Assembly (NCBI GenBank): GCA_964464365.1
Contig: CAYXFV010000003.1
Location: 4,477 to 68,476, forward strand
DNA: 64,000 bases
Source: an uncultured Nitrosomonas sp.
GTDB lineage: Bacteria; Pseudomonadota; Gammaproteobacteria; Burkholderiales; Nitrosomonadaceae
Direction: 5' to 3'
A program made the translations under genes and the position numbers. Below, piece by piece: positions 34,356 through 56,558 of this stretch (its first letter is position 1; every line of letters begins with the position of its first letter). The notes beneath the pieces were generated by a model. That model worked only from the letters and a program-made list of their open reading frames with translations. It ran no database searches and was not told where the DNA came from.

Positions 34356-37300
34356 TCAGCGCAGACTCCGCGCCAGCAGGCCGGTGTTGCCGCCGAATGC
34401 GGTCACATTGTCGGTAACGGTTTGTTCCACGGCAAAACGGCGCAGATAATCCGGGCCGCCCGCTTTGGGGCCGGTGCCGGACAGCCCCATGCCGCCAAAC
34501 GGTTGCACGCCGACCACGGCGCCGATCATGTTACGGTTGATATAGATATTGCCGACCCGGGCGTGTTGCCGGATGGTTTCGATGGTGCTCTGGATACGGC
34601 TGTGTATGCCCAGCGTTAATCCGTAACCGCTGGCGTTGACAGCCTGGATAACGGCGTTCAGCTCATCGGAAGCATAGCGGACGAGGTGCAGTACCGGTCC
34701 AAAAACCTCTTCGCGCAGTTGCCGCATATCATCCAGTACGATCAGCGTTGGTGGATAAAAATAGCCGGTCTGGAAATGGAGTGTGCCGGAAAGCAGGGGG
34801 AGTTGATAGATTGTATTGCCTAAAGCGCGCATATGGTTGACATGGTTTTTAAGTTGCGCCACTGCGGATGCACTGATGACAGGCCCGATATCGACGGCGT
34901 AGTCGGTGGGCGAGCCAAGCCGCAGTTGCTGCATCGCGCCGATCAGCAATGTCTTGATCTGATCCGCGATTGCATGTGGCACGAATAATACCCGCAATGC
35001 CGAACAGCGTTGTCCGGCACTGTTGAATGCCGATAACACGGTATCCTGCACTAATTGCTCTTTGTGCGCCGAACTGTCGGCGATCAGCGCATTCTGGCCG
35101 CCGGTTTCCGCGATGAACGGGACTATAACCGGGTGACTGGCCAATTCCCGGTTGATCCATTGTGCGGTAGCGGTGGAGCCGGTAAAAGCGACACCGGCAA
35201 TACGATGGTCTCCGAGCAGGTGGGGGCCGATTTCAGAGCCTTTGCCGGGCAGGAAGTGCAAGACCGATTCCGGAATGCCAGCCTGATAGAAAATGCGCGC
35301 GCAGGCCATGGCGGTCAGTGCGGTGCGCTCGGCGGGTTTGGCGATAACTGTATTGCCGGCAACCAGCGCCGCAGCGATCTGGCCGCTAAATATCGCGATT
35401 GGAAAATTCCAGGGGCTGATGCACACAAAAACGCCCCGTCCGGAATAATGCAGCTGATTGATTTCTCCGGTCGGGCCTGGCAGATAGATCGGTTTGCTGA
35501 ACAATTCCAATGCGTTCGCTGCATAATAGCGGCAAAAATCCACCGCTTCGCGCACTTCGTTCAGCGCATCCCTGATTGTGCGCCCGCCTTCCCGCACGCA
35601 CAGCGATACCAGCGTCATGCGTTGTTGCTCCATGAGATCGGCGGCTTTCAGCAGACAGGCCGCGCGGTGTTCAACGGGCTGCAAACGCCAGTCCTCAAAA
35701 CCGGCGACGGCGGCATCCAGTGCATCGGCAGCCGTTTCCGGGTTGCCGTAGACTACTTCGCCAATGATTTCCTGATGATCGTAGGGTGCGGTAATCGTCT
35801 GCGCCTGGCCTGTGTACACCTTGCCGTTAATCCGGGGAGCAGCCTGGTGATGGCTGTCCGCAAGCCGATCCCAATCCTGCTGAATCTGTTGCCGGATCTG
35901 TGGATCAGCCAGATTCAGTCCCTGCGCATTACGGCGTTGAGCACCATAAATCGCGGCAGGTAACGGCAATCCGCTCTGCGGGCCATTCAGCCAGACAATA
36001 ACCGGATCGCGCACCGCGTCATCAATGGCGATATCCGGATTTTCCGCCTGATGGATAAAAGACGTATTGGCGCCGTTTTCCAGCAAACGCCGCACCAGAT
36101 AGGGGAGCAGATCCTGATATCCGCCAACGGGTGCATAGATGCGGCAGGGAATGGATTGGCCGGTATGGATTTCAACGGTCTGATACAGCGCATCGCCCAT
36201 GCCGTGCAGGCGCTGAAATTCATAACCGGGATGGTTGCGTGCCATCTGCATAATGGCGGCAACAGTATGTGCGTTATGTGTGGCGAATTGCGGAAAAAAA
36301 TAATCCGGTGCATCGATCAGCAATTGCGCACAGGCCAGGTAGCTGATATCGGTTGCCGATTTGCGTGTAAATACGGGATAGCCGTCAAGGCCGTTTTCCT
36401 GTGCGCGCTTGATTTCGCTGTCCCAGTACGCGCCTTTGACCAGTCTGACGGGTATTCTGCGGTTTTTGCATTTTGCCAGTTCCGCAAGCCAGTGGATGAC
36501 ATGAACGGCGCTTTTCTGATAGGCCTGCACGGCCAGCCCTAATCCCGGCCAGCCGTCCAGTTGCGGATGCCTGGAAACCGCTGCGAAAATATCCAATGCC
36601 ATTTCCAGACGTTCGCTTTCTTCGGCGTCGACAGTCAGCGCAATACCCGCGCTGCGTGCCTGAATGGCAAGCTGCGACAGTCTGACTGTCAGTTCGGGAA
36701 CGGCATATCTGTGCTGCAGCGGCTCATAGCGTGGATAAAGCGCGGAAAGCTTGACGGAAATACTCGGCCTTGCGTAGAGGGCGTGATGGTTTTCATCGCC
36801 GGATGCCCGGTGTGTTGCCGCCAATTGTGTGATCGTTTGCTGATACGCCGCTAAAAAACGATCGGCATCCGCTGCCGTAAGCGCGGCCTCTCCCAGCATA
36901 TCGAATGAATGGCGCGTGCCATACGTGGTATTTCCGGCCGTATCGGTGGTGTCGGCGGATTTATGTATGGCCTGGTCGATGGTTTCCGCAAACACAAATT
37001 GTGTGCCAAGAATATGCATCGCCTTTTTAAGGGCGATGCGTATGACGGGTTGCCCCAGACGCACCAGCAGTTTTTCGATGATGGTATGAAATTGCGGATG
37101 CCGGTCTGCCTGTGCCTGTAACCGGTGCCGCTCCAGCGATCCGGATAGAACCAGCGCATCGGTTGCCAGGCGGGTCAATAAATCGTCATGATGAAAGCGC
37201 GGATGCCAGTCCGCTGCGCTCAAGCGGTCGGCCAGAAAATGGTCCTGTGTGGCCTTGTCCGGAATGCGTAACAAGGCTTCGGCAATATTCATCAGCGCGA

Positions 37301-37565
37301 TGCCTTCAACGCTGCTGAGTTGATATTCTGTCAGAAATGCCTGTGTGATCGATTGCCGGACGCCGGGCTGCGTTTTCCGGTTAGTTTTGTGGCGTATTTT
37401 TTCCAGCAGTTCCTGTGCATGCATGGTTGCTGTATCCGCTGTGTCGGCTGAATAGCCGGTCAACTGCGTCAGCAGATGTTGCACTGCCAGTGCTTCGTCG
37501 GCGCGGTAAGCTTGGTTGATCGAGCAGCGGGCGGTTTTGAGCGTATCTGAATCCATAGGAATCAC
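34356..37565 (-). CDS. putA: Bifunctional proline dehydrogenase / P5C dehydrogenase (no N-terminal RHH domain)
   Basis: [84 protein letters not shown]. Confidence 0.95.
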
Positions 37566-46539: not shown

Positions 46540-46996
46540 AAATAATGAAAGCCGGGAAAAATGTGAAAATAAAGCATGATCTAATTTCAGGAGAAGTGGA
46601 TCCCAATTTTTGGACAGGTGGCTTAGGAGTTATTTTCCCCACATCAACCTGCCTCAAGCAACTTGATGGACTCATAAATAGACCTGATCGGGTGTTGCCA
46701 TCAAGGTTTGATGTTTCCGGTTTTCATTGTAAACCCGAAAATACTTAGCCAGCGATTGTTTGGTCTCGGACGCTGACTCATAGGCATTGAGATAAACTTC
46801 CTCATATTTGACGCTGCGCCACAAACGCTCGACAAACACATTTTTTATGAAGTCACGGATTTTGCAAAGATCTCAGTTGATCAAAATTTGAATAAGCCGA
46901 TGGAGATTCTTTTTTATTTTCCATAATGCATTCTTCTTGTTTGTTTTACCAAAAATCCAGTTGAAATTGTTCGGAAGAAAGCTGATAAATTTTGTA

Positions 46997-48106
46997 CTAC
47001 AGCCGGATGATCGGTTTAATCGTGATACCTTTCTCACTATCTTCAGCGGCCTGATTGATTTGATCGAGAGAATAAAATTTCACCAGTTTATCGAAAGGAA
47101 ATCTTCCCTGTTGATATAGTTCAACGAGTGCCGGAATGAAGAGATCCGGTTTACTATCGCCTTCGATGATCCCGATAATGCGTTTCCCTGTCGTCATCAC
47201 ACCGTTCACATCGAAGCTCGCTTCCGTACCCAAGGCAGGTGCACCGACAATGCCGCATGTTCCCCGAATAGCCAACGCATCGATGGCTTGACGCAATACG
47301 GCCGGGCGTCCGCTCGATTCCAGCGCGAAATCGGCACCGCCGCCGGTAATTTCACGAACTGCTTCGACGGGATCAATTTCCCGGCTGTTGATAGTATGGG
47401 TTGCACCAAGTTCCATCGCCAAGACCAGGCGTGAAGGAACCACATCTGCCGCGATGATTGTGGTAGCACCCGCAACGCGCGCAGCCATCACGGCACTCAA
47501 CCCTACTGCGCCGCCGCCGAATGCGACAAAACTGCTGCCAGGATTGACTTTGAGTGCGTTTATAACGGCTCCGGCACCAGTTTGAATGCCGCAACCCAGC
47601 GGGCCAAGTAGCTCCAAGGGCGCATCGCTGGGAACTTTGATGACGTTACGCTCATGCACGAGCGCAAATGTGCCAAACGACGATTGCCCAAAGAAATGAT
47701 CGTGAACCGGCTCTGAAGTATTACCTGTTGTAAAGGTTGACGTACTGCCGTCTTCACGTGCACCATTGAAATTCAGGGCATAAAAATGCTCGCAATAGGT
47801 CAAATCACCGCGTAAACAGGGCTTGCAGTGGCCACACCACATATAGGTCAGCACAACATGGTCGCCAACAGCGACTTTTTTTACATGGCTGCCAATCTGT
47901 TCGACCACTCCGGAGCCTTCATGCCCTAATACCACCGGCAGCGGCACCTCATAGAGCTGGTCGCGTGCGACCATATCGGTATGGCACATACCTGTTGCTA
48001 CGATCCGCACCCGCACCTCATCGGACCGAGGTTCATCCTGAGCTAATTCTTCGATCTGAAAAGGGCCACCTTTCTGGCGAACAACTGCTGCCTTGATTTT
48101 TCTCAT
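46997..48106 (-). CDS. Zn/NAD(P)-dependent aryl-alcohol dehydrogenase (XylB-like)
   Basis: GMCHTD, GHEGSG, CGHCKPC...C structural Zn site, [22 protein letters not shown]. Confidence 0.88.
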
Positions 48107-48156
48107 GGGTACCTCCGCTTTGGAATGGTTATTTTCTGTTCAGAGTCAAGATGAAA

Positions 48157-49701
48157 CTAGCGAATGCCCGATTTTCCCGGTGCAAGGATTCCATTCGGAT
48201 CCAACGCTTTTTTAAGTGTTTTGTGAACATTTCTCTGCACCGGACCATAAGTTTCTGCGACTTTATCCATAAAAGCCGTATTGACCCGATAAATGCCATA
48301 TCCTCGCGCAGAGAATTCGGTCAGCAATTCATCGAAGCACTGGTAAGCCGCTTTCGTCTGTTCGGGATCAGTCTTGTCGTACAGGACATCAACAATATGA
48401 TGCATATCACGCATCCCGACGATAAACTCGCCGGAATAATCCAGTCCGTACTTGGCCAGTATTTGCTTGGTCAAGGCCATTTGTTTAAGGGTTTCACTGC
48501 CACGCGCTTGTGAGACGGGCGCAAACCACATCGATCCACCACCTCCGCGCCAGTTATATAAGGAAAATTCCGTCAGTGTCATTTCTCCGCGCATGAGCTT
48601 GGCGCGGTAAGCAAACGCAGGATCATCCGCCGCTTCCTGCTCCGTCAGGATTTTTGCCTTGCCCGATTGGTCGAATGCCTGTGTCACGATTTTCCAATTC
48701 ACATCAATCTGTTCCTGTGTGCCATAGAGTGCGGCATACACATTCCAGATTCCCAGTTTGTGATCTTTCATGATTCGATAAACTGCCTCATCCGGGATCG
48801 AGCCCGGCCCGGATACATAATCACTACGCTGGGCTTTTACGGGTGCCTCATACAGCGCATGAGCGATGACCACAGCATTGGGAATGACACCGCTGATACG
48901 CAACGGACGAATCGTTTCGACGATTTCGACGATATCTTCTTCCTGTTGATATTGAATGACAAACGGCTTGAATGCTGGTGGCTCGGGCATCAACCAAAAA
49001 CCGAATTTGGTGACGATGCCATAGTTGGATTGCGTAAAAATACCATCCAGGTAAGGACCATACCCCCATTTGAATACCTGCCAGGTGTTGGAGTTGGGCA
49101 TCGAGCCCATGCCGGTGCGCAGTACTTCGCCATTTGCCAGAACGACTTCCATGCCGCAAGCGAATAAAAAGTGTTCGCCATAGGGTGTGTAACCCACGCC
49201 GCGATCCAGCGTATTGCCAACCGGTCCCGCGATGGCGGAGGGCGCGGGCATCGACAGCCATAAGCCCAGTTTGTGCTCTTTGATGTAATCGTAGAGTTGC
49301 TGATAAGTTACGCCCGGTTCAACCAGGGCAAAAGCTAAATCCTTATCCACTTCGAGAATGCGATTCATGCGTTTCAAATCAAGCACCACCTGGCCACGCT
49401 CTGCCGGTGCTGCCGAGCCATAGCCCAAGTTTTTTCCGGTGGAAATCATCCAGATCGGTACTTTGTATTGATTGCAAATCGCAACGATTTTCTGGATTTG
49501 TTCGACGGTTGTGGCCAGTAGTGCCGCGGACGGCGTATGCTCCGCATCGGAAACCGGCATCATTGTCTTAATGTAAGGTGCAAGCTGTTCTGCGCTGGTA
49601 AGCACAGAATCATCACCCAGTACCTTGCGAAAATCATTGATGGCTGCATCGAAGTTTTTTTTGGAAACGCCTTTGGGCAATGCGATATATTGACTGGTCA
49701 T
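48157..49701 (-). CDS. pchF: p-cresol methylhydroxylase-type flavoprotein subunit (VAO/PCMH family)
   Basis: STGKNLGYG, GNTLDRGVGYTPYG, and EFSLYNWRGGGGSMWFAPVS containing the Tyr that carries O-tyrosyl FAD in PchF; RDMHH.VDVLY; DPNGILAPGKSGI. Confidence 0.88.
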   Translation of the reverse strand: MTSQYIALPKGVSKKNFDAAINDFRKVLGDDSVLTSAEQLAPYIKTMMPVSDAEHTPSAALLATTVEQIQKIVAICNQYKVPIWMISTGKNLGYGSAAPAERGQVVLDLKRMNRILEVDKDLAFALVEPGVTYQQLYDYIKEHKLGLWLSMPAPSAIAGPVGNTLDRGVGYTPYGEHFLFACGMEVVLANGEVLRTGMGSMPNSNTWQVFKWGYGPYLDGIFTQSNYGIVTKFGFWLMPEPPAFKPFVIQYQQEEDIVEIVETIRPLRISGVIPNAVVIAHALYEAPVKAQRSDYVSGPGSIPDEAVYRIMKDHKLGIWNVYAALYGTQEQIDVNWKIVTQAFDQSGKAKILTEQEAADDPAFAYRAKLMRGEMTLTEFSLYNWRGGGGSMWFAPVSQARGSETLKQMALTKQILAKYGLDYSGEFIVGMRDMHHIVDVLYDKTDPEQTKAAYQCFDELLTEFSARGYGIYRVNTAFMDKVAETYGPVQRNVHKTLKKALDPNGILAPGKSGIR

Positions 49702-49713
49702 GCTGTGTTCTCC

Positions 49714-50664
49714 CTATACGTCGATTACAAACGAGACGAAATGTTTCCCCGACAATCCATGATGATCCGGATAGTGCTGACCCGACCGATGCACGAATGC
49801 GCGGCTGGAGCATGATTCTTGATGCGTACCCATACCCAATGCAGTTGCTACAACCGCATAACCGGTAGTTTCTACCCAGTTGTCAAATCGGAGCGGTTCA
49901 ATTGTTGTTCCCACCGCTGTTTTGTTTTGATCGATGGAAGATTCATCACCCTGGGATGATATTGATTTCCAATTTTCTGATGCTTTCCAGCCAATCAGTT
50001 GACTGGCTTCCAGCGGAGAAACTCCGGCACAATGCAAATGAGTTGCGGGTTGCTCAGCCAGCCAATAAGACGAGAACTCCGCTAATGATGAATCTTTCAT
50101 TGCACTATTATCTCCCACCGTTTGTTCAAGAAAATTCTCGACAATAGAGAAATCATGCTGATTTTGGGTGAGCAGGGACGCCAGTATTCCTCCCGCGCTG
50201 TATGCCGGTAATGCGGTAGTCCACACATGTCTCATAGGGAAGGAAGCATCATTGCTGGAAGAAGAGATATGTGAACCCAGTGAAAGCAGGCGGCCTTCAA
50301 AATTTCTTATCAATTCAGTAAATATGGCCGCACTGGCATGATCCATGACAGCAATCCAACGCATATTACGGGATTGCGTCAATAAATCCACGATGTGCAG
50401 CGGGTTGGTTAATAGCTCATTTTCTAATTTAAATGCCGGTAATGTGCCTTGACGGTAATTGATATAGCGGGTGCAAGCGGCCTGAGCGCCTCTGGCAAAT
50501 GCTTCGTCTATGGGGGTATTACCCAGTAACAGCTGACAATTGCGCGTGCTACCGGAGAGCGTTTGGCTGATGGATACTGCTTGAGTGACTGTAGGAATAC
50601 CGAAGGCCAGCAAGGTTCCACCAGTGAGCATGCCTTTGATGAGGCTACGTCGCGTTTCATCCAT
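49714..50664 (-). CDS. Hypothetical protein in the pchX position, with a twin-arginine-like N-terminus
   Basis: Begins MDETRRSLIKGMLTGGTLLAFGIPTVTQA; lies between the pchC-like and pchF-like genes. Confidence 0.7.
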   Translation of the reverse strand: MDETRRSLIKGMLTGGTLLAFGIPTVTQAVSISQTLSGSTRNCQLLLGNTPIDEAFARGAQAACTRYINYRQGTLPAFKLENELLTNPLHIVDLLTQSRNMRWIAVMDHASAAIFTELIRNFEGRLLSLGSHISSSSNDASFPMRHVWTTALPAYSAGGILASLLTQNQHDFSIVENFLEQTVGDNSAMKDSSLAEFSSYWLAEQPATHLHCAGVSPLEASQLIGWKASENWKSISSQGDESSIDQNKTAVGTTIEPLRFDNWVETTGYAVVATALGMGTHQESCSSRAFVHRSGQHYPDHHGLSGKHFVSFVIDV

Positions 50665-50678
50665 GGAATGTGACCTCC

Positions 50679-51008
50679 TTAATGCTGAGCTTCTTTTTTT
50701 GAAATGAAATCCGCTAGTTTTGCTAATGACTCGTCGTCGATTTCTGAAGTACGAAAGGCGGGCATGGCCCGATTTCCATTGCGAACGACTGCACGGATAT
50801 AAATTGCAGGAAGTTCGCGATTGCGAATTGGCGGCCCGACATGGGCTTCATGACAATAAGCGCAAATTTTGGCGTAAATTTCCGCGCCATCTTTCCATGC
50901 AAATCCAGGAGTGGTTTTCTCATCTTGTGCTGACCATGCGTTACCGGCCACAAAAATGATTGCAACTATGCAGCCGACTATATAGCTTCCCAATTTTGTT
51001 TTTTTCAT
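50679..51008 (-). CDS. pchC: Cytochrome c subunit of p-cresol methylhydroxylase type
   Basis: Sec signal, CAYCH heme motif, YIRAVVRNGNRAMPAF...IDDESL typical of PchC. RBS ggag before ATG 51008 (alternative start 51026). Confidence 0.85.
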   Translation of the reverse strand: MKKTKLGSYIVGCIVAIIFVAGNAWSAQDEKTTPGFAWKDGAEIYAKICAYCHEAHVGPPIRNRELPAIYIRAVVRNGNRAMPAFRTSEIDDESLAKLADFISKKEAQH

Positions 51009-51033
51009 ATGAATTCTCCCTTCCATGATCCTG

Positions 51034-51852
51034 TTACCACAGCAAACTCGTCACTTTCTTTCCCATAATTTCATCATTGAATACCACCTTGGCTATGGGT
51101 GAACCGACGCAAGCGATACCATAGCAAACATGCAAGGGCAATAAATGCTCTTCCCTCGGATGACAAAATCGAGCAGAGGGTGCCTTCTCCCACTCAATCA
51201 ATCGTTGTTCACGTGCTTCAGATAAAATCACCGGGTTGGTACACGTTTCAATCAACCAATGATCAAACCCTTCATTTTCTTTGCTGCAATCGATATCGTT
51301 CGAGAAAAATGTTTTCAAATTATGAAATGACATGCCTGAACCAATAATCAGAATATTCTTCTCACGTAAAGATGCAATCGCTTTTCCAAGCGAAATATGC
51401 ATTCGAGGGTTTAAATTTTTCAGCAATGATAGCTGGATACAAGGAATCCGGGTCTGCGGAAACATCAGCTTGAGCGGCACAAACAATCCATGATCAAAAC
51501 CGCGTTGATCATCAAGTCTCGCCGGTACACCGCTTGCCATTAATAGCGCATAAATTTCTTTCGCCAGCCCGGGATTACCCGGTGCCGCATATTGAATTGT
51601 GTAGGCCTCAGCAGGAAACCCATAGTAATCATAGATTATTTCAGGGTTATTACCACTTGTTATCGTTGCTTGAACTTCTTCCCAGTGAGCACTGATGACT
51701 AAAATCGCCGATGGTTCACCCAGCTCACTGACAATTTTCTTCAGAAAAGAAACCATCTCTTCATGCCCTCTGTCACCAAGAACAGGTAATGGGCCACCGC
51801 CGTGCGGCAAATACAGAACAGGTGAAAGCACTTGTGATATCTGGCGCGTCAT
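51034..51852 (-). CDS. Class III extradiol dioxygenase, DODA/YgiD (LigB) family
   Basis: LPHGGGP, ISAHW, RGFDHGLFVPL, GSGMSFHNL, HPREEHLLPL. Confidence 0.88.
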   Translation of the reverse strand: MTRQISQVLSPVLYLPHGGGPLPVLGDRGHEEMVSFLKKIVSELGEPSAILVISAHWEEVQATITSGNNPEIIYDYYGFPAEAYTIQYAAPGNPGLAKEIYALLMASGVPARLDDQRGFDHGLFVPLKLMFPQTRIPCIQLSLLKNLNPRMHISLGKAIASLREKNILIIGSGMSFHNLKTFFSNDIDCSKENEGFDHWLIETCTNPVILSEAREQRLIEWEKAPSARFCHPREEHLLPLHVCYGIACVGSPIAKVVFNDEIMGKKVTSLLW

Positions 51853-51909
51853 CGTTAAAAACTTCCGCTCGTGGAGCGGAGTATTTTATTAAGCCTGTGT
51901 ACTATCTGA

Positions 51910-52515
51910 CTATTCACGGCATAGTTTGCCGGCCACTTGCGCGACATGAGCGCCCTGAAAGCGTGCAATTTTTATTTCATTGTCTGACGGCTGGCGTTTG
52001 CCATCGCCACCGGCCAGCGTGCTTGCCCCATACGGTGAACCGCCGGTGATTTCACTCATGTTCATGATCTCCTGACAGGAATAGGGAACACCCACGATGA
52101 TCATACCGTGATGGAGTAAGGTGGTGTGAAATGAGGTTATCGTGGTTTCCTGGCCGCCGTGCTGGGTGCCGGTAGACGTAAATACACTGCCTACTTTGCC
52201 GATCAGTCCGCCGCTCAGCCATAATCGACCTGTCTGGTCCAGAAAATTGCGCATTTGCGCGCACATATTGCCGAAACGTGTAGGCGTACCGAAGATAATG
52301 GCATCATAGCTTGATAGCTCATCAACGGTTGCAATGGGCGCTGCCTGATCAAGCTTAGCACCGACCTTTCGTGCCACTTCCTCTGACATGAGTTCGGGGA
52401 CGCGTTTGATGATAACCTCGGTATTTTCGACGTTGCGTGCACCTTCAGCTACCGCGTTGGCCATGATTTCGATATGACCATACATGCTGTAATACAGGAT
52501 AAGAACTTTTGCCAT
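51910..52515 (-). CDS. wrbA: NAD(P)H:quinone oxidoreductase WrbA
   Basis: [38 protein letters not shown]. Confidence 0.93.
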
Positions 52516-55002: not shown

Positions 55003-55944
55003 TCCTTATAGAACGGGCGTTTCCGTGTTTCGGTACTTTTCCGGCTGATCATATTTTGGTGCTGATAGCCAGTCGCAAGCTCAAACTATTAGTTGTAACT
55101 ATAGGAAATATAAATACTTTTTTCCATAAAAAATATAGGTATCCAGAATTAAATAGGTTGTCAAACTGTTAAAATCCGATGTAACTGAATACTTATTAAG
55201 AAAAATGAACGATTCTAAATGATGAAAGAGAGTAGAAATATGATTACAAAAAAATATGGAATTTAATGAAGCCAGATGTATTCATCCATTTCACTTTTAA
55301 CCTTAAACTTAATTTTAATCAATAGAATTCTGAGACTCACATTCAATTATGCGTAGAAAAAGCAATTTTATGTGCATAGCACATGTGGTGAAATAATTGT
55401 CGTTTCTTGCTGTTAGATATGATAAGTATGATGAAACTTTATAGGTATTTAGTATGAAGCGCTTGCATAATCTAGTTGTTGTATAGGGTAGTTGGTTCAC
55501 TGCGGGTGTCATCGCCAGTTTGTATCACCTATACATACCTCCGTAGTAAAGCTCCAATTGAAGTCTTTTGCGACAAGCAAGAAAGCGGAGAACCATATTC
55601 GATCAGCAGGAGATTGAAGCATGAAAAATGCCAAGTTGAGCTATTTGTTTCTGATTTTCGTACTTACCGTGCTCTGATTTGTGGCGGATGGGGTTATCTC
55701 AAAGGCTGTAAAAAAATTATCAAGATGCGGCCACAACAAATCCTGAGGGTCTCTCCACCATTACCTGGGTCATAATAATTGAACTGTTGAGAAAAGCTTT
55801 TAGGAACGATTAAATGCGATTTTCTTCTTGTCTACCTTACTGATAATAGTGCTTGAAATTGATCCTTTATTGGTTTAACGTTTAAACCAGTTGCCAATCA
55901 ATAAGCTGGATTGGACATCCACCAGTCAGAAAGGACTAAGCAAT

Positions 55945-56466
55945 ATGTTCAATTTAGGTTCCATGCTCAATTTAGGCTCCACTGAGCCGGTCATAAGCAA
56001 GGCGCATACAATAGTAGAATGCCCGGCCAGTGAGATTTTCCAGTATCTCGGAGAAGGTTTATTCGAGAATTATCCCAAATGGTCGCCAGAGGTTAAAGAG
56101 CTTGAACAAATCACTCCTGGGCCGGTAAAGCTGGGAACTGAAGGGCGGCAAGTGCGTGTTGATCAGGGACGTCGTACAGAATCCAAGTTTAAAATTTCTA
56201 CGTATGAACCCGGTCTACGTTTAACGCTTATAGGGGTATCCGATCCTTATCGCTGTACGTATGAATTACAGGCTATTAATCCTGAAAATTCAACCAAGCT
56301 AACATTTTCTTTTGAGCTGCTTGAAATTCTGGCGATTATGCGACCTTTCGAAGGGCTAGTCCGAATCGCCATAAAGGATGGTGCAGAGCGAACAGTTCAG
56401 AATATCAAACGTTTGGTCGAGGCAGAAAAAGCCAAGGGCGCTTCGGTTAATCAAAAATCACTTTAA
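55945..56466 (+). CDS. SRPBCC/START (polyketide cyclase-like) family protein
   Basis: NYPKWSPEVKELEQITPGPVKLGT pattern. RBS aagga before ATG 55945. The N-terminal MFNLGS/MLNLGS repeat comes from an 18-bp tandem duplication. Confidence 0.75.
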   Translation: MFNLGSMLNLGSTEPVISKAHTIVECPASEIFQYLGEGLFENYPKWSPEVKELEQITPGPVKLGTEGRQVRVDQGRRTESKFKISTYEPGLRLTLIGVSDPYRCTYELQAINPENSTKLTFSFELLEILAIMRPFEGLVRIAIKDGAERTVQNIKRLVEAEKAKGASVNQKSL

Positions 56467-56558
56467 ATCATACGATATAGCAGCCTAAGTATCTAATAAT
56501 AAATAATGAACACTTGTGATGGGTGTTTTGTAAACCAGTTAAGGTTAAAGGAGGACTG

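Follow-up and report, generated by a model that had tools for sequence, protein, structure and literature searches.

What would an ammonia-oxidising bacterium do with enzymes for the oxidation of p-cresol? The question is raised by a 64,000-nucleotide stretch of contig CAYXFV010000003.1 (the window), part of the 2.9 Mb, 130-contig assembly of an uncultured Nitrosomonas sp., in which six minus-strand open reading frames (ORFs), all of full length, had been described in preliminary form as a phenolic-oxidation cluster. We compared it with 80 loci recovered with a PchF query from species-representative genomes; these relatives share ancestry, and the counts of loci given below are thus not a statistical test. 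The comparison points, with moderate rather than high confidence, to a nitrifier version of the upper p-cresol pathway that has lost its last enzyme here and that would serve the non-assimilatory removal of phenols.

A predicted PchCF-type flavocytochrome and its neighbours

The six genes are co-oriented and tightly packed, as originally described, with intergenic gaps of 57, 7, 14, 12 and 50 nucleotides. Their proposed identities (wrbA, an extradiol dioxygenase gene, pchC, a gene X, pchF and an aryl-alcohol dehydrogenase gene) are borne out by profile and structure-database matches that agree with each other. From upstream to downstream, the cluster reads as follows.

51910..52515, minus strand: wrbA, NAD(P)H:quinone oxidoreductase type IV (NF002999, TIGR01755)
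51864..51880, minus strand: terminator-like hairpin with a T-run after it, in the gap that separates wrbA from the LigB-type gene (consensus scan only)
51034..51852, minus strand: LigB-superfamily extradiol dioxygenase, DODA/YgiD-like, without a signal peptide (PF02900, 1.2e-32)
50679..51026, minus strand: pchC, mono-haem cytochrome c subunit with an N-terminal Sec-type signal (PF13442, 1e-19; PDB 1dii_C)
49714..50664, minus strand: gene X in the pchX position, a protein with a twin-arginine translocation (Tat) signal and without a known fold (N-terminal Tat motif)
48157..49701, minus strand: pchF, p-cresol methylhydroxylase-type flavoprotein subunit without a signal peptide (PDB 1dii_A; PF01565, PF02913)
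46997..48106, minus strand: adh, Zn-dependent aryl (benzyl) alcohol dehydrogenase, cytoplasmic (PF08240, PF00107; PDB 5tnx, 1f8f)

PchF aligns with the Pseudomonas putida PchF structures (1DII, 1WVE) over residues 6-513 (1dii_A, 2.8e-234) and, by position count in the alignment to 1dii_A, keeps Tyr95, Glu380, Tyr384 (the covalent flavin adenine dinucleotide (FAD) site, LYNWRGGGG), Tyr473 and Arg474. Following the structures of p-cresol methylhydroxylase (PCMH), we take Tyr95, Tyr473 and Arg474 to bind the phenolate, Glu380 to be an active-site residue and Tyr384 to carry the 8-alpha-O-tyrosyl-FAD. Residue 7 of the solved mature chain aligns to ORF residue 6, and an alignment that starts there leaves no room for a cleaved signal. 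The partner PchC matches 1dii_C over residues 43-111 (2.5e-18, the next PDB match being at 0.0064) and possesses both the CAYCH haem motif and the AMPAF methionine; its mature chain begins near ORF residue 43, about 40 N-terminal residues being lacking from it. With fold, FAD site, binding residues and cytochrome partner all matched, the cluster is predicted to encode a PchCF-type flavocytochrome.

The alcohol dehydrogenase (ADH) finds its best structural matches in 5tnx (3.9e-160) and in the benzyl alcohol dehydrogenase of Acinetobacter (1f8f, 2.9e-144), with class I/III ADHs at about 1e-64, and its translation includes the catalytic and structural zinc cysteines as well as GGGAVG. WrbA scores above the equivalog cut-offs of both its families (NF002999, 357.6 bits for a cut-off of 141; TIGR01755, 333.6 bits for a cut-off of 132.5). 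Judging from the terminator-like hairpin, a consensus match only, wrbA may form a separate transcription unit. The LigB-type protein has its best PDB matches in a plant 4,5-DOPA dioxygenase (8in2, 9.6e-43) and in Escherichia coli YgiD (2pw6, 1.3e-30), and is classed from these as DODA-like, not as a demonstrated YgiD/DODA equivalog.

Gene X occupies the pchX position of the Pseudomonas operon. Its product has no Pfam, NCBIfam or PDB sequence match, and carries the Tat motif TRRSLIKG at residues 4-11. The pattern RR-x-L/F-x-K-G is found in 59 orthologues selected for alignment, those of heterotroph loci included, and its RR is invariant in the 38 that were aligned; TatC is encoded in the same genome. 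We reasonably infer from this that PchX may be a Tat escort that carries PchF out. An AlphaFold model of X (predicted local distance difference test 78.8, predicted template modelling score 0.80) returned a best E value of 0.23 in a Foldseek search of the PDB, so the fold gives no functional lead. As a fairly confident model that nevertheless lacks a PDB fold match, it may represent an undescribed fold.

Host, proposed route and the truncated pchA

The preliminary description had suspected a chemolithoautotrophic host, and the assembly agrees. The closest PchF loci among the 80 are all named Nitrosomonas, named Nitrosomonas loci share 80-86% identity with the cluster DNA, and RuBisCO is encoded in the assembly. 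Profile searches of the 130 contigs for AmoA and AmoC gave no match. Complete genomes of the genus hold three identical amoA copies and fragmented ones often zero, and six contig ends of the present assembly match the amo(CAB) locus of a complete same-genus genome. The matches at contig ends, together with the multiple amoA copies of relatives, indicate that the amo operons are repeats left unassembled, and the host is, on these matches, most probably an ammonia-oxidising Nitrosomonas.

In such a cell, PchC would be exported through Sec and receive its haem in the periplasm, while PchF, having no signal peptide, would fold with FAD and probably be carried through Tat by the Tat-signal protein PchX. 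The periplasmic flavocytochrome would then abstract two electrons from p-cresol or a similar 4-alkylphenol; hydration of the resulting quinone-methide intermediate would yield 4-hydroxybenzyl alcohol, and a second turnover 4-hydroxybenzaldehyde. The electrons would pass from the PchC haem to the periplasmic pool of c-type cytochromes, and the cytoplasmic NAD(P)-dependent aryl-alcohol dehydrogenase would interconvert alcohol and aldehyde. In this way the module would clear an inhibitory phenol co-metabolically and yield a few electrons at the cytochrome c level.

Where this route ends depends on PchA, the 4-hydroxybenzaldehyde dehydrogenase. The gene for it had been reported as absent, which is correct insofar as the window contains no intact pchA; a remnant of 17 codons (46924-46874) survives, however, and the loss of the gene is secondary. 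The cluster in fact runs past 46997, first into this remnant and then into a fragment of an insertion sequence (IS).

46874..46924, minus strand: pchA remnant (4-hydroxybenzaldehyde dehydrogenase), codons 1-17 (tblastn with the aldehyde dehydrogenase of relative L005)
46567..46872, minus strand: 3' fragment of an IS3-family element, abutting the pchA remnant (C-terminal end of the transposase at 46872-46675)

The ATG of the remnant lies 72 nucleotides past the adh stop, and 15 of its 17 residues are identical to the N-terminus of PchA in relatives (tblastn E 2.4e-4). Past codon 17 the frame reads unrelated sequence, out of register, to a stop at 46853, and DNA homology with all relatives ends at about 46875. 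The IS3 fragment is recognised by rve_3 (2.8e-9, 37 bits, above the cut-off), and IS3-family copies 91-94% identical were found elsewhere in the same genome, on eight contigs, several of them at contig ends. A short blastn search of the junction against Nitrosomonas ureae gave no match; it was the protein-level comparison that settled the identity of the remnant.

Relatives retain what the window has lost. N. ureae Nm13 has an intact pchA at this position, in the order copA, wrbA, ligB, pchC, X, pchF, adh, aldh, and an intact PchA-type aldehyde dehydrogenase (ALDH) stands directly after adh in 22 nitrifier loci, N. ureae and 21 others. These ALDHs, found with an ALDH from a heterotroph locus as query, form a single clade apart from the heterotroph ALDHs (support of 99 in the Shimodaira-Hasegawa-like approximate likelihood ratio test, SH-aLRT) and have as best PDB match a '4-hydroxybenzaldehyde dehydrogenase (NADP+)' (7.7e-202). 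A stop at the aldehyde, proposed earlier as a feature of the module, is thus not one. A 17-codon remnant beside an IS fragment, set against the intact gene of relatives, indicates that pchA was lost secondarily from the window, apparently in an event associated with the IS element. Six other nitrifier loci hold pchA remnants with other break points, or split genes, and no trace of pchA was seen in the loci of Nitrosomonas europaea, Nitrotoga and N. defluvii; the differing break points and the traceless loci together point to repeated loss of pchA with pchCXF-adh kept.

No other gene appears to take over the missing step. The ALDH-family genes of the genome are only PutA and a ProA-like gene, and neither a PchA-like nor any other aromatic aldehyde dehydrogenase was found elsewhere in it. 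(The bifunctional PutA is itself in the window, at 34356-37565 on the minus strand, and joins proline dehydrogenase and pyrroline-5-carboxylate dehydrogenase to a DNA-binding domain.) PobA was not found in nine nitrifier genomes: that of the window, five complete pchF-positive Nitrosomonas, N. defluvii, Nitrotoga fabula and the pchA-positive N. ureae. The window's genome encodes one intradiol-type protein, of 223 amino acids, beside an HDOD gene and without catabolic neighbours, and no intradiol protocatechuate pathway was identified in it. The lack of PobA in the nitrifier genomes searched, with that of an intradiol protocatechuate pathway in this one, therefore argues that the module is not a carbon route. 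A heterotrophic host with a full pathway elsewhere is rejected, as neither PobA nor an aromatic ALDH was found in the genome and the intradiol-type protein lacks a catabolic context. In agreement with the preliminary description, in which the module stops at the aldehyde, the end product here should be the aldehyde or the alcohol; relatives that still have pchA should form 4-hydroxybenzoate.

These predictions can be set beside physiology in N. europaea, whose locus reads ligB-pchC-X-pchF-adh (X, PchF and ADH being CAD84651 to CAD84653). No PchA ortholog is encoded in its genome, where the closest ALDH is 33% identical. Keener and Arp reportedly observed in 1994 that N. europaea cells treated with acetylene formed aldehydes from p-cresol and from several hydroxymethyl aromatics, and reduced benzaldehyde to benzyl alcohol, but produced no carboxylic acids. 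Aldehyde end products and interconversion of aldehyde and alcohol are what a PCMH with a reversible aryl-alcohol dehydrogenase and no PchA would be expected to give. The earlier suggestion that the module could be the genetic basis of an activity independent of ammonia monooxygenase (AMO) is therefore plausible, and we infer that the module may underlie the acetylene-insensitive conversion of p-cresol to the aldehyde. The same locus (L089, 4361-5047) contains two tandem genes for 108-residue cytochromes c upstream of ligB-pchCXF-adh, whose products could accept electrons from PchC.

Conservation, spread and companion genes

Tblastn of the six window proteins against all loci separates a core from its surroundings. 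The order pchC-X-pchF is kept in almost every full-length locus of Nitrosomonas, Nitrosospira, Nitrotoga and Nitrospira, with adh following in most, and the conserved unit is thus pchC-pchX-pchF-adh. The preliminary description had included wrbA and the DODA-like gene in the module; they prove to be lineage-specific additions outside this unit. WrbA is encoded beside the module in an N. ureae/oligotropha-like subset only. The DODA-like gene belongs to the genus Nitrosomonas, where it lies directly upstream of pchC in 19 loci; three Nitrospira-type loci and one Nitrosospira locus have distant copies of it, 36-39% identical. The gene copA adjoins the module only in the closest relatives. Nitrosomonas sp. 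JL21 carries two copies of the module, one with wrbA and ligB and without pchA, the other with pchA and a pair of SRPBCC and methyltransferase genes and without wrbA or ligB.

Across the nitrifier loci, identity to the window is 79-98% for PchF, 81-95% for ADH, 48-82% for PchC and 33-83% for X; the ADH exceptions are a Nitrotoga fabula locus (L029, 47%) and one metagenome-assembled genome (MAG, 74%). Trees of PchF, ADH and X are broadly congruent, so that the module seems to evolve as one unit whose genes change at very different rates, and the end branches leading to the window are short (0.017 for PchF, 0.03 for ADH). A branch of the PchF tree, supported by an SH-aLRT of 100, parts 66 rows from 14 heterotroph rows (Rhodocyclaceae, Oxalobacteraceae, Gammaproteobacteria and one actinobacterial MAG). 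Among the 66, every row bearing a name is a nitrifier: Nitrosomonas, Nitrosospira, Nitrosovibrio, Nitrotoga or Nitrospira/Nitrospiraceae. Inside this group, a single MAG contributes two rows on long branches. Nitrotoga PchF falls inside Nitrosomonas, with support of 96 for its own clade and of 87-91 for the nesting nodes. Furthermore, in a collection of 5.8 billion proteins, the named PchF matches at 77% identity or more all come from Nitrosospira, Nitrospira or Nitrospirota, and the first non-nitrifier name appears at 75%. These relationships suggest that the module has been shared among nitrifying bacteria by gene transfer.

Mapping the module among ammonia oxidisers and beyond places the nitrifier-type pchF in 27 of the 81 species genomes sampled from the window's genus, in 28 of 43 from another genus of the family, most likely Nitrosospira, in Nitrotoga and in 6 of 121 Nitrospiraceae; none of the 26 genomes across two further genera has it. 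The module is thus an accessory element. It has its centre in the betaproteobacterial ammonia oxidisers, has spread sporadically across phyla to nitrite oxidisers, and is not a universal nitrifier trait. Six same-genus genomes encode a PchF homologue of another kind, 65-68% identical and of a lineage outside the nitrifier clade.

Two known systems help to delimit what is particular to the nitrifiers. The pchA-pchC-pchX-pchF operon of P. putida NCIMB 9866/9869 (PDB 1DII/1WVE) has the same flavoprotein, with covalent-FAD tyrosine and phenolate-binding residues, the same small cytochrome c and a Tat-signal middle gene, and the window's relatives share its PchA-type ALDH as well. On the other hand, the window's host is an obligate chemolithoautotroph without PobA or an identified protocatechuate pathway, its pchA is truncated, and the aryl-alcohol dehydrogenase is an integral and highly conserved part of the nitrifier module. 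The heterotroph sister clade of PchF (Rhodocyclaceae, Oxalobacteraceae, Gammaproteobacteria) resembles the module in the order pchC-pchX-pchF, in 69-74% PchF identity and in the Tat motif of X. It differs in that an ALDH of another lineage adjoins pchF (in four of the five loci read, as the next gene downstream), that a XylR-type sigma-54 activator is nearby in at least four and that branched-chain-type ABC uptake genes occur in both loci read for them, whereas the window's module has neither such a regulator nor uptake genes. The heterotroph loci also lack the Zn-ADH, apart from a 60% identical ADH upstream in one (L081), and they lack quinone reductases.

Quinone reductases, by contrast, recur beside the nitrifier module. 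Genes for these flavodoxin-like NAD(P)H enzymes, which fall into at least three kinds that are not orthologous (WrbA, two FMN_red types and a Rieske-FMN_red fusion), lie next to it in 38 nitrifier loci as well as the window, in four nitrifier lineages; the 14 heterotroph loci showed none. That different lineages have taken up different reductase families supports the handling of quinone by-products beside phenol oxidation, and so lends comparative weight to the earlier proposal that WrbA quenches quinones. The most likely role of WrbA and the DODA-like dioxygenase would be to deal with the quinones and catechols that arise from phenolics. Pirin, glyoxalase-fold, NmrA-like and DsbA-like genes accompany the reductases in N. 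defluvii and Nitrosospira. The MhqR regulon of Bacillus subtilis, a gene set for quinone and catechol resistance, offers a parallel: here too flavodoxin-like quinone reductases and ring-cleaving dioxygenases stand beside phenol oxidation, with pirin in Nitrosospira and Nitrospira. Its proteins are not homologous in detail and no regulator is shared, so that the likeness is a functional analogy only.

A further pair of genes lies upstream of the cluster in the window.

55891..57593, plus strand: SRPBCC (polyketide-cyclase-like) gene (PF10604, 2.6e-10) and plant-type O-methyltransferase gene (PF00891, 5.3e-26, with PF08100)

Within about 4 kb of pchCXF-adh, and in several arrangements, the same pair occurs in seven other Nitrosomonas and Nitrosospira loci, and it may be a further accessory of the module that acts on phenolics. 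Other neighbourhoods are richer. In an N. defluvii-type locus (L087, 1-13331), the module forms part of a long series of co-oriented genes (NmrA, pirin, DsbA-like, two glyoxalase-fold, DUF5069, Rieske-FMN_red fusion, CDGSH and FNR-like, then NmrA-like and NDH-2-like) that looks like a large electrophile or quinone response island. In Candidatus Nitrotoga fabula (L091, 12237-15313), genes for a RoxA-like dihaem cytochrome c and a cytochrome P450 follow the module, and an FMN reductase gene is placed between pchF and the divergent (47% identical) ADH.

Competing explanations and what the module may mean

Several points weigh against reading the cluster as a p-cresol pathway kept for phenol removal. 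The range of substrates of a PCMH-type enzyme cannot be read from sequence, and 4-ethylphenol, eugenol and vanillyl alcohol are substrates of enzymes related to PCMH. The DODA-like protein reaches 139.3 bits with NF007914, below the equivalog cut-off of 233, and has no obvious substrate in the p-cresol pathway; the terminator-like hairpin parts wrbA from the other genes, and wrbA may have nothing to do with the module. For an NADH-linked ADH, reduction of the aldehyde is thermodynamically favoured, so the enzyme may run in either direction in the cell. The loss of pchA here could be a first step of decay. Finally, the accessory distribution described above is patchy, and any benefit of the module would therefore be conditional.

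The first of these points leads to the alternative that fares best, in which the enzyme is of PCMH type and its physiological substrate is another para-substituted phenol, such as 4-ethylphenol, 4-hydroxybenzyl alcohol or lignin- or humic-derived phenols (eugenol, vanillyl alcohol). Structures of eugenol oxidase and vanillyl-alcohol oxidase also match PchF (1e-135 to 1e-117), a well-supported branch sets the nitrifier clade apart from heterotroph PchF, and the nearby O-methyltransferase pair and DODA-like dioxygenase hint at methoxy- or catechol-type substrates. The p-cresol enzyme itself is nevertheless the best match of PchF by about 200 bits, the ALDH of relatives is closest to 4-hydroxybenzaldehyde dehydrogenase, and N. 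europaea cells are reported to oxidise p-cresol without AMO. We consider another substrate unlikely, though by no means far-fetched.

Alternatively, the benefit might be mainly energetic, with phenolic electrons passing through PchC to cytochrome c and ADH providing NAD(P)H without reverse electron flow. It is established that PCMH electrons exit at the level of cytochrome c, the entry point of nitrifier respiratory chains; the unusual conservation of PchF (79-98%) and ADH (81-95%) while PchC and X drift, and the two extra small cytochrome c genes upstream in the N. europaea locus, would also fit. An electron supply of this kind is harder to reconcile with the patchy distribution, with a window that holds no uptake system or dedicated regulator, with the repeated loss of pchA, the source of further reducing power, and with environmental phenol concentrations that are far below those of ammonia or nitrite. 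A mainly energetic role is accordingly quite unlikely.

That the cluster is a decaying, functionless relic of a transferred catabolic island might be argued from the destroyed pchA with its abutting IS fragment, from the pchA remnants or split genes of six other loci and from the absence of the module from most species sampled. The six remaining ORFs are however of full length with catalytic residues intact, the end branches are short, and N. europaea, Nitrotoga and N. defluvii likewise persist without pchA while their PchF and ADH are 85-94% conserved, all of which makes a relic very improbable. Disposal of endogenous p-cresol, or supply of 4-hydroxybenzoate for ubiquinone, is hardly conceivable and both were rejected: ThiH and HydG do release p-cresol and 4-hydroxybenzoate is the ubiquinone ring precursor, as established biochemistry has it, but ThiH was not found in the window's genome, the chorismate lyase UbiC is present there, the pchA needed for 4-hydroxybenzoate is truncated, and PCMH is periplasmic in the model organism.

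Non-assimilatory phenol removal by a nitrifier version of the upper p-cresol pathway hence remains the reading that we prefer. The enzymes come from a family that is well known. The novelty lies in how they are conserved and distributed among nitrifiers and in the repeated trimming of pchA, and the interest is ecological and physiological rather than mechanistic. Phenolics, cresols included, are classic inhibitors of nitrification in wastewater and soils, and nitrifiers are usually regarded as their passive victims or as AMO-driven co-oxidisers. Speculatively, and we think it rather unlikely in this full form, betaproteobacterial ammonia oxidisers and, via transfer, some Nitrotoga and Nitrospira might maintain a dedicated non-assimilatory phenol module whose selective value is specific to nitrifiers, as an auxiliary electron donor or as protection of periplasmic AMO and nitrite oxidoreductase chemistry from para-alkylphenols and from quinone or nitrated products. 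The repeated loss of pchA would then be an adaptive trimming to the steps that matter. Apart from this speculation, a module for p-cresol oxidation that is conserved and passed on between nitrifiers would change the usual picture of them: it would predict an aldehyde end in the window's strain and in N. europaea as opposed to a 4-hydroxybenzoate end in N. ureae, and would provide a way to ask whether obligate chemolithoautotrophs gain tolerance or electrons from phenols.

It would also provide a genetic handle on the AMO-independent aromatic transformation reported in 1994. Full-text literature searches returned no paper in which PCMH or 4-cresol dehydrogenase is connected with Nitrosomonas, Nitrospira or nitrifiers, and the literature searched contained no gene assignment for the acetylene-insensitive oxidation of aromatics. 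Public records do use '4-cresol dehydrogenase' as an automatic name.

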